Below are positions 52,732 to 55,205 of a stretch of DNA of 64,000 nucleotides, piece by piece (positions within the stretch are counted from its first letter, which is position 1; every line of letters starts with the position of its first letter). The DNA comes from Thermodesulfobacteriota bacterium (GTDB taxonomy: Bacteria > Desulfobacterota > Desulfarculia > JACQYL01). Position numbers and translations under genes: made by a program. Location: the NCBI GenBank assembly GCA_963675595.2, contig CAXXLZ010000001.1:544001-608000 (forward strand). The letters are read 5' to 3'. The notes below the pieces were generated by a model. That model had not been told where the DNA came from. It worked only from the letters and a program-made list of their open reading frames with translations, and did not search any database.

Positions 52732-53877
52732 TTACAGCAACGCGGCTGCTTCCGCCCGGATGCCTGCTTGTGAGGCGACGTCGAGAAATCTCTTGAGTCC
52801 TTCCTTGGACGAATCCGTTTGGATGGTAACCCATCGGGAGAGTTTGGCCAAGGCTTGGCCGGTCTCGATAATTTCACGGCTCATTTCCACGCCTTTTCCG
52901 ATATTCTCCGCTTTGCCCACCAAGTAGAGAACGGCGCCCGCATTGAGGCAGGTCATGTCGACGCACTCGGGATGTCCGGTTCCGGTGATGACCTTCATGA
53001 ATCGGACGAGTTCCTTGTGGATATCCCCCGTCGCCGCGATGGATGGGTAGTCGGCCCGCTCGAGCCCCACATCCTCGGGTGCCAGAAGGAAGGTCTGTTC
53101 GTCCCCGTCGGTGGTGAATTCGTGCACCAGAGTCTCGCCGAGAATCGACATCTCATCCATTCCCTTCTTTTTTTCGGCATCAAACCCGTGCACCACCATG
53201 GCACGCTGATACCCGATATCCTTCATCACATGGCTTACTTTGGGGACGAGCTCCTCCGCATAGACTCCTCGCAAGCCGTGTGTGGGGCGACAGGGACTTG
53301 CCAGAGATGCGGCGATATTGAGCGTGGATCCAAAACGAATCTGACTCAGGATCCGTCCCAGCGATTGGGGGTGGACCTTGGAACTCATGCCGTTGAACAG
53401 GCCGATGCCCTCTTTTCGGATGCTTTCCGCCACCTTATCCACTTCGCACTCGACGTCGATGCCGATGCCTTCAAGCAGGTCCACCGTGCCGCAGGAGGAA
53501 GTCAGGGCTCTGGCTCCGTGGCGTGCCATTCGTGCGCCGCCCGCGGCGGCGACCACGGATGCGGCGGTGCTTACGTTGAACGTCTTGAGCTGATCCATAC
53601 CGGTTCCCGAGTTCTCGACGATGGGGGCGTCCAGTTCGCCCTCAACGGCCGCCGTATCGAGTTCCACAATAGCCTGCCAGGCACCGGCGATTTCCTGGTA
53701 GGTCTCCCCCTTGGAAACGAGAGCCGAGAGAAACGCGCCCTGTTGCAGGTCCGGCTGTTGATTCAGCAGAATGCTGCGGAACATCTCGTAGCTCTCATTA
53801 CGGCTCAGGTCCTCTTTTCGGATGAGCTTCTGGATGTTCGCACCGAACGATTTCAATGATTCTTCCGACCAACTCAT
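52732..53877 (-). CDS. Anthranilate phosphoribosyltransferase-like (TrpD-fold) protein, divergent
   Basis: SGTGMD, TFNVST, RHGAR, G.DE, NAG; not in a trp operon. Confidence 0.8.
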   Translation of the reverse strand: MSWSEESLKSFGANIQKLIRKEDLSRNESYEMFRSILLNQQPDLQQGAFLSALVSKGETYQEIAGAWQAIVELDTAAVEGELDAPIVENSGTGMDQLKTFNVSTAASVVAAAGGARMARHGARALTSSCGTVDLLEGIGIDVECEVDKVAESIRKEGIGLFNGMSSKVHPQSLGRILSQIRFGSTLNIAASLASPCRPTHGLRGVYAEELVPKVSHVMKDIGYQRAMVVHGFDAEKKKGMDEMSILGETLVHEFTTDGDEQTFLLAPEDVGLERADYPSIAATGDIHKELVRFMKVITGTGHPECVDMTCLNAGAVLYLVGKAENIGKGVEMSREIIETGQALAKLSRWVTIQTDSSKEGLKRFLDVASQAGIRAEAAALL

Positions 53878-53891
53878 TTCTCACGTCTCCT

Positions 53892-54875
53892 TTAACGATT
53901 TCTGCTCGGATAGAGGAGGACCTTCATGCCCAGGCGATTTTCGACGATTTTGAGCGCTTCCTCCAGCTCGCCCAGACCCATGCGATGCGAAATGAGGTCC
54001 TTGACGGGGACTTCTCCCTCGGCAATGGCACGCAAAGCCTCGATGCCGTGTCTGAAGCTGCAGCCATAGGCGCCTACAATTGTCTGCTCGTGGTAGTGCA
54101 ACTGGTTGAAGCTCACGGGAAGTTCATCCTCCGACGGATGCAGCCCGGAGAACACCACTAGGCGACCGCGCGGATTCATTGCCCCAAGCGCCTCCCGATA
54201 GGCTTGCACGGAACCTACCGCCACAATGCAGGCGTCGAATTTCTTCTTCCCGGGGCTCGCCATGCCGCCGGCGATTTCTCGACGACGCTCATCCGGTTCT
54301 ATGGGAAAAGGTTCGGCTCCCATGGAACGTGACGCTCTCGCCAACAAGGTTCCCGCGGGTCCGGCACCCCAGATTCCCACGGTGTCGCCCCGTTGGAGGC
54401 GCGCCAGTTCGAGCGCATTGAGGCAACAGGAAAGCGGTTCCGCAAATACGGCCTGCTCCGCGCTGAGACCCTCGTGAACGGGAATAACACTCCTTGCCGG
54501 GGCGATGACGTATTGAGCGAAGCCGCCATCTCGATGAAACCCCATGATCTGCATGCCGCGACAGAGGTTTTCCGCGCCTCTCAGACAAGCCGGGCATTCG
54601 CCGCACCAAACGCCCGGATACACATAAACCCGTTGACCCTCTTTCAGATCGGCGACATGATCACCCCTCTTGCGCACGATCCCAACGACTTCCTCACCGG
54701 GGACTCTCGGCAAGGTGAGATCGCGATGACCCACCCTGATGATCTTGAGGTCCGTGCGACAAAGGCCGGTTACTTCCACTTCTATGAGTACCTCGTCGTC
54801 CTCGATGTCCCGTACCGGCAGGTTCGCCTGTTCAAAATCCCCGATTGTTCTGACCAGAACGGCCGACATTTCCAT
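53892..54875 (-). CDS. Zn-dependent medium-chain dehydrogenase (threonine/sorbitol-DH-like)
   Basis: GLCRTD, PGEE, CGECPAC....NLC, DGGFAQY, AEPLSC, GAGPAG; start ATG 54875 with GAGG RBS. Confidence 0.88.
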   Translation of the reverse strand: MEMSAVLVRTIGDFEQANLPVRDIEDDEVLIEVEVTGLCRTDLKIIRVGHRDLTLPRVPGEEVVGIVRKRGDHVADLKEGQRVYVYPGVWCGECPACLRGAENLCRGMQIMGFHRDGGFAQYVIAPARSVIPVHEGLSAEQAVFAEPLSCCLNALELARLQRGDTVGIWGAGPAGTLLARASRSMGAEPFPIEPDERRREIAGGMASPGKKKFDACIVAVGSVQAYREALGAMNPRGRLVVFSGLHPSEDELPVSFNQLHYHEQTIVGAYGCSFRHGIEALRAIAEGEVPVKDLISHRMGLGELEEALKIVENRLGMKVLLYPSRNR

Positions 54876-54975
54876 GGTCCGATTCCTCTCGGCGAGACGT
54901 ATACTCTTGCAGTGACGGCCCCGAGGTATACGTCCCTGCGCGAAAATTTCTCGAGGCCCTGAACAAACAAGCACG

Positions 54976-55019
54976 AAAAAAAGGGTTCCGACAGCCGAAA
55001 CCGGCCATCGGAACCCTTT
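54976..55019 (-). terminator. Riboswitch expression-platform terminator
   Basis: Minus strand AAAGGGTTCCGATGGCCG...CGGCTGTCGGAACCC followed by T7. Confidence 0.8.
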
Positions 55020-55044
55020 GCCATCGGATTCCTTACCTATCGAA

Positions 55045-55205
55045 GCGTCGGTCGTCTTCTGACTTCCAGGTCTTCCGCAAGATCGACGCCTTCCCATACC
55101 GGTACGTCTTGCGCCCGATACAGTGGCTTAACTCCGGATCTGCGTCCCCGGTTACAGCGGCGGGACCGTCACGGATTTACACCGTGTTCCGTTACCGAAC
55201 TTCTA
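55045..55205 (-). ncRNA. Cobalamin riboswitch
   Basis: Minus strand GGAACACGGTGTAAATCCGTG-ACGGTCCCGCCGCTGTAA ... GCCACTG ... GGGAAGGC ... AGTCAGAAGAC, the B12-element conserved blocks in order. Confidence 0.9.

Follow-up and report, generated by a model that had tools for sequence, protein, structure and literature searches.

We have found that a short operon in a stretch of the genome of a Thermodesulfobacteriota bacterium is probably a cobamide module that works with CobT, and that it is probably not devoted to tryptophan synthesis. The stretch that we analyzed (the window) is 64,000 nt long and covers positions 544,001 to 608,000 of contig CAXXLZ010000001.1 in GenBank assembly GCA_963675595.2. 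Its operon consists of a cobalamin riboswitch, a gene for a zinc-type dehydrogenase, and a gene for a paralogue of the anthranilate phosphoribosyltransferase (AnPRT) TrpD, which we call TrpDL. The best reading of this cassette is an accessory and self-contained lower-ligand module that would be switched off by the finished cofactor. The observations behind this reading are the anatomy of the operon and its riboswitch, the conservation of the arrangement in distant genomes, the linkage and fusion of its parts to CobT, and a TrpDL active site in which the ligands of phosphoribosyl pyrophosphate (PRPP) and Mg2+ are kept and a ligand of anthranilate is lost.

The riboswitch-dehydrogenase-TrpDL cassette

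The features of the cassette, in the coordinates of the window, are as follows.

52577..52595, minus strand: terminator-like hairpin 3' of TrpDL (7-bp stem and T-rich tail), the likely end of the operon
52732..53877, minus strand: TrpD paralogue TrpDL, 381 amino acids, with Pfam domains Glycos_trans_3N (PF02885) and Glycos_transf_3 (PF00591)
53892..54875, minus strand: zinc-type medium-chain dehydrogenase, 327 amino acids, with Pfam domains ADH_N (99 bits) and ADH_zinc_N (36.9 bits)
54973..55019, minus strand: intrinsic terminator of the expression platform (18-bp stem, 4-nt loop, T7 run)
55054..55190, minus strand: cobalamin riboswitch aptamer, RF00174, 78.2 bits, E 1.4e-17, model positions 47-167 of 189

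The aptamer score lies well above the RF00174 gathering score of 31.5, and the aptamer is the sole Rfam match across the window. A covariance model that we made from the Rfam riboswitch matches found upstream of relatives (R1) widens the match to 55032-55221, with a score of 145.5 bits. The terminator lies between the aptamer and the start codon, and its stem (55019..54980) contains 10 G-C pairs among its 18 bp and is followed by TTTTTTT. The leader has a folding energy of -43.1 kcal/mol (z = -4.18), and none of 200 shuffled sequences folded as well. Transcription-terminating OFF switches are built in this way, with an aptamer followed by a terminator, and the layout implies attenuation in the ligand-bound state; we infer this OFF logic because the cobalamin riboswitch class usually behaves in this way. 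The Rfam match is limited to model positions 47-167 both in the window and at its closest relatives (loci L004, L005, and L010), while more distant loci match positions 1-189, and the partial match may reflect a compact aptamer variant or diverged outer stems. At the other end of the operon, the hairpin 3' of TrpDL is weak evidence, with 4 terminator-like hairpins in the region against a shuffle mean of 2.8.

The longest open reading frame (ORF) of the dehydrogenase, 53892..55097, overlaps the aptamer, and the true start is therefore the ATG at 54875 or 54869. Only 14 nt separate the dehydrogenase stop from the TrpDL start. These results agree with the original prediction, which was made from the letters of the sequence and which described a cobalamin riboswitch and terminator before a zinc dehydrogenase with G-E-E for G-H-E, followed after 14 nt by a TrpD-fold protein bearing the motifs GTGMD and RHGAR: the dehydrogenase contains PGEEVVG, and TrpDL has both Pfam domains and both motifs.

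The same arrangement recurs in many other genomes. Scanning one genome per species with the peptide ENSGTGMD produced 447 loci encoding a relative of TrpDL, and the best 80 of these, with 51-80% identity, were kept. Neighbors were counted by tblastn; longest-ORF calls gave false antisense ORFs in high-GC loci. In 77 of the 80 loci the gene immediately before TrpDL on its strand encodes a homolog of the dehydrogenase, and R1 detects a same-strand cobalamin riboswitch upstream in 61 of the 80, with 3 of the 19 misses having no upstream sequence. Since the order riboswitch, dehydrogenase, TrpDL is repeated in 61 of 80 related loci, the arrangement is beyond chance. Rfam itself places a riboswitch upstream in 13 of 16 loci, and 4 of 8 further loci, picked by profile from a sample of 201 genomes of the phylum that was scanned with the TrpDL family profile, have one as well. 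Among the whole members chosen by profile, six of seven carry GTGMD and RHGAR and one carries GTGAD. Neighbors other than the dehydrogenase are not conserved among the related loci.

According to their submitters' labels, the 80 loci come from many Desulfobacterota families and from Myxococcota, Nitrospirota, Acidobacteriota, Spirochaetales, and Dehalococcoidales; further labels are Kiritimatiellia, Victivallales, Lentisphaerales, Verrucomicrobiia, Thermoleophilia, a Firmicute, and an archaeon. Patchiness within the phylum, taken together with 51-60% identity across phyla, suggests that the cassette has spread horizontally.

Some members depart from the usual arrangement. In one protein (P0122) the dehydrogenase (residues 12-354) and TrpDL (residues 369-725) are fused. 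Another, of 787 amino acids (P0121, a single cluster), joins a TrpDL that is 58% identical over residues 1-332 to a clostripain-like Peptidase_C11 domain, and this fusion may be an assembly or gene-call artefact. At locus L076 the riboswitch directly precedes TrpDL, with no dehydrogenase. At locus L011, where no riboswitch was detected, a ZnuA/ABC/ABC-3 metal-uptake operon (206-2818) adjoins the cassette on its upstream side in the same orientation; this neighbor may mark a link to cobalt or zinc supply, or may be there by chance. A complex prediction for the dehydrogenase and TrpDL gave a score of 0.00 and no verdict, and it is used neither for nor against an interaction.

TrpDL and the dehydrogenase

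TrpDL occurs beside a canonical TrpD. The genome of the window has a complete trpE-G-D-C-F-B-A row on another contig (contig 2) with no riboswitch nearby, and the TrpDL gene lies outside any trp operon, as had been predicted. On the curated trpD model TIGR01245, TrpDL scores 238.4 bits against a cut-off of 199.05, and the TrpD of the trp operon scores 406 bits. All nine TrpDL-bearing genomes have two TIGR01245 matches, and the canonical TrpD in these genomes scores 352-432 bits. When the phylum sample is scored with the TrpDL family profile, eight genomes, including that of the window, reach 402-733 bits, one broken copy reaches 263 bits, and all other sequences, which we take to be canonical TrpDs, score at most 230 bits. 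The family is set off by this gap (at least 400 versus at most 230 bits). These scores suggest that TrpDL represents a discrete paralogue family that is very probably not a tryptophan enzyme, and the name "anthranilate phosphoribosyltransferase" given to it by the source databases is probably a misannotation.

The active site of TrpDL can be read against solved AnPRTs, with which it aligns at E 2e-44 (9ucw and 4hkm; HMMER). Its motifs are GTGMD, RHGAR, TFNVST, GMDE, and NIAASLASP. For the Mycobacterium tuberculosis AnPRT, PRPP and Mg ligands are given as N117, S119, T120, K135, S142/S143, and D251/E252, and ligands of the anthranilate carboxylate as N138 and R193 (PMC9835598). The TrpDL counterparts of the PRPP/Mg ligands are N101, S103, T104, D241, and E242, which correspond to pyrophosphate/Mg2+ residues, and T126/S127, which correspond to 5-phosphate residues; K135, the beta-2 Lys, is replaced by Arg119. 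The GMDE motif is found in 77 of 81 family sequences. On the acceptor side, the position of N138 is occupied by the Ala of RHGAR. R193 aligns to a Leu with an Arg two residues earlier, a placement that depends on the alignment (HMMER against 9ucw). The GTGGD loop, which the genome's canonical TrpD retains, reads GTGMD in TrpDL, so that G110 of GTGGD is replaced by Met, and the LGPLTNP stretch of AnPRTs reads AASLA(S/N)P. With the PRPP/Mg ligands kept and an anthranilate ligand lost, TrpDL is likely to use PRPP, and anthranilate is unlikely to be its preferred acceptor.

TrpDL thus resembles TrpD, a type III phosphoribosyltransferase, in its two-domain fold as judged by sequence, in passing the curated hidden Markov model (HMM) cut-off, and in its PRPP/Mg2+ ligands. 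It differs from TrpD in the motifs GTGMD, RHGAR, and AASLA(S/N)P, in its riboswitch control, in its dehydrogenase partner, and in its location outside the trp operon. TrpD2/YbiB and nucleoside phosphorylase II belong to the same superfamily, and on TrpDL the YbiB model scores 28.6 bits and thymidine phosphorylase at most 46 bits. TrpD2 is described as missing the PRPP motif (PMC9835598), whereas TrpDL keeps the PRPP ligands.

The dehydrogenase is assigned by its sequence to the polyol/threonine-dehydrogenase-like branch. Its best NCBIfam match is the threonine dehydrogenase Tdh (NF003808, 132 bits against a cut-off of 380; TIGR00692, 124 against 458), and it falls far under the cut-off of every named equivalog. 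The closest solved structure, 4ej6, is an uncharacterized putative zinc dehydrogenase. In the family alignment, Cys39, Glu62, Glu146, the four structural Cys residues, GxGxxG, and E/D193 are kept; all 82 non-gap rows have the structural zinc site Cys91/94/97/105, and all 83 have G170/G172. The catalytic zinc triad Cys-His-Glu is altered: Cys39 and Glu62 are kept, and Glu61 occupies the His position, giving G-E-E where G-H-E is usual. Glu is found at this position in 74 of 80 aligned rows and His in 6, among them all three CobT fusions described below. The dehydrogenase therefore shares ADH_N and ADH_zinc_N, the catalytic Cys and Glu, the Cys4 zinc site, and GxGxxG with Tdh, galactitol-1-phosphate 5-dehydrogenase, and sorbitol dehydrogenase, and differs from zinc medium-chain dehydrogenases in its usual Glu for His and in scoring under the named equivalogs. 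The acidic residue that closes beta-2 suggests that the cofactor is nicotinamide adenine dinucleotide (NAD) rather than its phosphate (NADP). From the many invariant Arg and His residues it is reasonable to expect an anionic, sugar-phosphate-like substrate, which would fit a phosphoribosyl adduct.

Linkage to CobT and the cobamide genes of the host genomes

Within the few kilobases fetched around each of 88 loci, tblastn detects CobT at 20, CobU at 13, CbiB at 5, and CobS at 5. The gene orders at the most telling of these loci are as follows.

L064: GHMP kinase, CobD-like aminotransferase, CbiB, dehydrogenase, TrpDL, CobT
L099: riboswitch, dehydrogenase, TrpDL, CobT, CobS, CobD-like
L041: dehydrogenase, TrpDL, CobT
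L073: the pair inside a hemC/cobA/hemD, hemB ... hemL, cbi operon
L082 (archaeon): dehydrogenase, TrpDL, sodium:solute symporter, archaeal CobT-like
Kiritimatiellia: CobU, CobT, CobS, riboswitch, dehydrogenase, TrpDL
Thermoleophilia: riboswitch, dehydrogenase, TrpDL, second riboswitch, CobU, CobT

At eight Thermoleophilia loci (L055, L058, L068, L074, L075, L076, L078, and L083) the second riboswitch comes directly after TrpDL and before cobU-cobT; these are thus two adjacent cob units on the same strand, each with its own switch.

Fusion proteins tie the same components together. Four genomes of the phylum sample have TrpDL and no free dehydrogenase, and all four encode a dehydrogenase::CobT protein of about 700 amino acids with the dehydrogenase at its N terminus. 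In three of them (G134, G148, and G082) the gene after TrpDL encodes an ADH_N::CobT fusion of 702-716 amino acids, with ADH_zinc_N recognized in two of the three, and in G134 and G082 TrpDL and the fusion stand behind a riboswitch. In the fourth genome (G194), TrpDL and dehydrogenase::CobT are unlinked, 3.3 Mb apart, with no riboswitch found near either of them. The TrpDL of G194 (contig 3, 2045382-2047100; L100) has no adjoining dehydrogenase and follows directly after genes for a shikimate-kinase-family protein and an enoyl-CoA hydratase. The TrpDL gene before the fusion in G082 (contig 7, 54827-55921; L098) is interrupted by one TAG, which splits the match in two, and may be a pseudogene or reflect a sequencing error.

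The fused dehydrogenase domain is 35% identical to the enzyme of the window and keeps the canonical His; the two have in common the stretches CRTD, GHRDLxLPRVPG, CGEC..C..ENLC, and GFHRDGGFA. The dehydrogenase::CobT family numbers 406 proteins at E <= 1e-30, and both domains are present in 119 of 120 among the matches listed. NCBI names the fused forms of Desulfogranum, Desulforhopalus, Desulfopila, and Desulfomarina plain CobT. In the 201-genome sample, CobT frames of at least 700 amino acids are confined to those four TrpDL genomes that have no free dehydrogenase; in the longer CobT frames of G152 and G091 (605 and 613 amino acids) no dehydrogenase domain was found. Linkage and fusions among the dehydrogenase, TrpDL, and CobT therefore make these three proteins a functional trio. 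A tree of the cassette-adjacent CobTs and the genome's own two CobTs, a set with no cassette-free references, has long branches.

A precedent for such an arrangement is the BluB/CobT2 fusion of Propionibacterium freudenreichii (PMC4657239). Like that fusion and the bza operons, the present system has a lower-ligand-related enzyme fused to or beside CobT under B12 control. It is unlike them in that the partner is a zinc dehydrogenase, not a flavin destructase or a radical S-adenosylmethionine (radical-SAM) enzyme, and in that a PRPP-type transferase accompanies it.

The cobamide genes of the window's own genome that concern the cassette are the following.

18855-19916, plus strand: cobT (TIGR03160, 425 bits)
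19913-20677, plus strand: cobS (cobS models, 107-147 bits)
contig 2, 646000-658088 (L088), minus strand: second riboswitch-led, bza-like operon, ending in a second CobT

The first of these is the CobT that had been predicted at 18.9 kb. It and cobS lie 33 kb from the cassette, and no riboswitch was found before cobT-cobS (18855..20677). Both are probable downstream partners of the cassette because fusions and operons that join such genes occur in other genomes. The operon on contig 2 encodes, in this order, a BzaF-like ThiC paralogue (548 bits on thiC and 511 on BzaB), a 548-amino-acid protein with a DUF2284-type tail, an unassigned protein of 258 amino acids, a BzaD-like protein (417 bits, just below the cut-off of 450), another B12-binding radical-SAM protein, and the second CobT.

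The hosts of the cassette are cobamide makers by their gene content, with CobT present in all nine cassette genomes and CbiC in eight. NadC is also present in eight; BluB has no match above its cut-off in any of the nine. Two ThiC-family matches are found in four of the nine, compared with about 34 of 201 genomes overall. The other five have at most one ThiC-family gene (one in G194, G030, G024, and G082, none in G134), so the cassette neither accompanies BzaF as a partner nor takes its place.

The 6.8-Mb genome of the window has 13 cobalamin riboswitches, three of them within 7.5 kb (contig 2, 3285108-3292579) and two of these divergent. Other riboswitches of the genome precede TonB-dependent receptors (L092 and L094) and a CbiK-like chelatase (L093). 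The flanks of the cassette look unrelated to B12: downstream, at 50540-52319 on the minus strand, lie genes for a ManC-like nucleotidyl transferase and for a protein with a cupin mannose-6-phosphate isomerase domain, and a 913-amino-acid ORF upstream, at 55310-58051 on the same strand, reads by eye as a hybrid histidine kinase.

Proposed role in cobamide synthesis

In proposing how the cassette might work, we infer that PRPP is used, in which order the steps follow, and what kind of acceptor and product take part. TrpDL, as a neofunctionalized TrpD, would bind PRPP and Mg2+ and would move the 5-phosphoribosyl group onto a nitrogen nucleophile other than anthranilate, producing an N-ribosyl adduct. 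The NAD-dependent zinc dehydrogenase would oxidize or reduce the sugar-phosphate part of this adduct, and its product would pass to CobT, which activates the lower-ligand base. Our tentative proposal for the outcome, possible and somewhat short of probable, is that the pair builds or releases the lower-ligand base itself, with PRPP carbon entering the heterocycle, and that the base is handed to CobT. We favor this base-making role because of the analogy with the BluB/CobT2 fusion and with cobT-containing bza operons. A more specific version, which we regard as rather unlikely in its particulars, is an oxygen-independent PRPP route in which the lower-ligand heterocycle is built on an amine and the base is passed directly to CobT. 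Here the amine, aromatic or heteroaromatic and perhaps an ortho-diamine, would be N-ribosylated by TrpDL. Once the ribosyl adduct had closed its ring, the dehydrogenase would oxidize it; C1' of the ribose would thereby be incorporated into the ring, with loss of a four-carbon sugar phosphate. The product might be a base of obscure origin such as 5-methylbenzimidazole, which has tentatively been connected with the corrinoids of Desulfobulbales. Such a route would be an anaerobic counterpart to the logic of BluB and a cousin of the formation of indole from PRPP in the tryptophan pathway.

Several results weigh against a cobamide module that works with CobT. TrpDL passes the curated trpD cut-off, so residual anthranilate activity is possible. 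The presence of GTGMD in 81 of 81 sequences is circular, ENSGTGMD being the pattern by which the loci were selected. No riboswitch was detected at E <= 0.01 in 16 of the 77 loci that have upstream sequence, and no cob gene was found within the few kilobases fetched at 68 of 88 loci. The taxon labels of the metagenome-assembled genomes are the submitters' own. The cassette is rare, occurring in 9 of 201 genomes of the phylum sample although 145 have CobT, and is therefore not a general step. Finally, a bza-like operon for making benzimidazoles is already present in the genome of the window, and the cassette occurs both with and without a second ThiC-family gene; thus a base-building role is neither demanded nor contradicted.

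The main rival of the base-making role is donor supply, which we judge to be unlikely. TrpDL would convert nicotinate, the by-product of CobT, or a related pyridine with PRPP to a beta-ribotide donor for CobT, so that PRPP and base would give alpha-ribotide in the net reaction, and the dehydrogenase would prepare or oxidize the carrier. The retained PRPP ligands and the tight link to CobT, to which the dehydrogenase is fused, would suit this role, as would the symporter gene between TrpDL and CobT in L082. Its stereochemistry fits as well: inversion by TrpD and by CobT is established chemistry, and passing from PRPP (alpha) through a beta-ribotide to an alpha-ribotide requires two inversions. 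However, NadC, the normal source of nicotinate mononucleotide, is present in all but one of the nine cassette genomes, hence there is no evident supply gap; in addition, the tiny flux to cobamides hardly needs a dedicated donor pathway, and the dehydrogenase is left without a clear role. It is very unlikely that the pair instead supplies phosphoribosylamine independently of PurF, and hence aminoimidazole ribonucleotide, to the radical-SAM benzimidazole synthase BzaF. The Tdh-like enzyme would make an amino-ketone or enamine from threonine, TrpDL would couple it to PRPP, and the adduct would hydrolyze. Salmonella TrpD reportedly forms phosphoribosylamine from PRPP and threonine-derived enamines, a finding ascribed to Lambrecht and Downs in 2013; Tdh is the best named match of the dehydrogenase, and the genome of the window has a riboswitch-controlled BzaF-like gene. 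Nevertheless, the dehydrogenase falls far under the Tdh cut-off (132 versus 380 bits), its fusion to CobT is left unexplained, and the cassette occurs without BzaF, given that five of the nine genomes have no more than one ThiC-family gene.

The Tdh match, together with a CbiB gene adjoining the pair in L064 and in the Kiritimatiellia loci, could also indicate a linker pathway, in which threonine would be turned into aminoacetone and then into (R)-1-amino-2-propanol for the nucleotide loop. We consider this highly improbable: the L064 and L099 operons already contain a CobD-like aminotransferase and L064 a GHMP kinase, so that a further linker route would be superfluous, the PRPP enzyme would have no role, and the dehydrogenase is fused to CobT and not to CbiB or CobD. 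To a similar degree we doubt a B12-independent bypass, in which the pair would stand in for a B12-dependent reaction under scarcity, as MetE does for MetH. OFF control by a riboswitch is typical of such isoenzymes too, and most loci have no nearby cob gene, but the CobT fusions and the embedding in cob/cbi operons speak against a bypass, as does the occurrence of CobT in every host genome and of CbiC in all but one. Moreover, we know of no B12-dependent reaction that resembles PRPP transfer plus dehydrogenation. Least credible of all is an ordinary second TrpD isozyme beside an unrelated dehydrogenase, with a riboswitch linkage that has no functional meaning. The TIGR01245 score and the database names are what such an isozyme would show, but TrpDL forms a discrete family across the bit-score gap, its acceptor-site residues are changed, it is always a second copy (nine of nine genomes), and its riboswitch and dehydrogenase partner are conserved across phyla.

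We therefore return to a cobamide module that cooperates with CobT. The original prediction had proposed either a PRPP-dependent lower-ligand route or a linker-modifying step; the former is supported in outline, and the latter is weakened by the CobD-like genes of L064 and L099 and the GHMP kinase of L064. It had asked whether such pairs sit with cob genes or are fused to CobT, and we find the pair within cob operons in L064, L073, and L099, and dehydrogenase::CobT as the next gene after TrpDL in three genomes and away from it in another. It had also raised the doubts that TrpDL might be the only TrpD of its genome or that relatives might lack B12 linkage. Neither is the case, given the canonical trp operon here and a canonical TrpD in nine of nine genomes, and given riboswitches at 61 of 80 loci and CobT, CobU, CbiB, or CobS neighbors at 20 of 88.

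In the full-text literature we found no paper on a B12-riboswitch-linked pair of a TrpD-like protein and a dehydrogenase, and an earlier mention in supplements or in Rodionov et al. 2003 is possible. A figure legend in a paper on an Antarctic Chlorobium names trpD and "DH" among the genes of cobalamin-related regions, and the legend passes over them without comment. The folds and the riboswitch were already known; relative to the literature searched, the family, the pairing, the B12 control, and the CobT fusion are new.

Which cobamide a microbe makes decides which members of its community can use it. Among predicted cobamide producers, the structure of the lower ligand proved predictable in just 58% (Shelton et al. 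2019, PMC6461909). A B12-regulated module that is widespread and is coupled to CobT is a testable candidate for a missing lower-ligand step, and fused forms are found in cultured Desulfogranum, Desulforhopalus, and Desulfopila, so experiments are feasible. Current pipelines label the parts of this module "anthranilate phosphoribosyltransferase" or plain "CobT". The finding is thus also an annotation correction, for a family that passes the trpD HMM cut-off and yet is very probably not a tryptophan enzyme.

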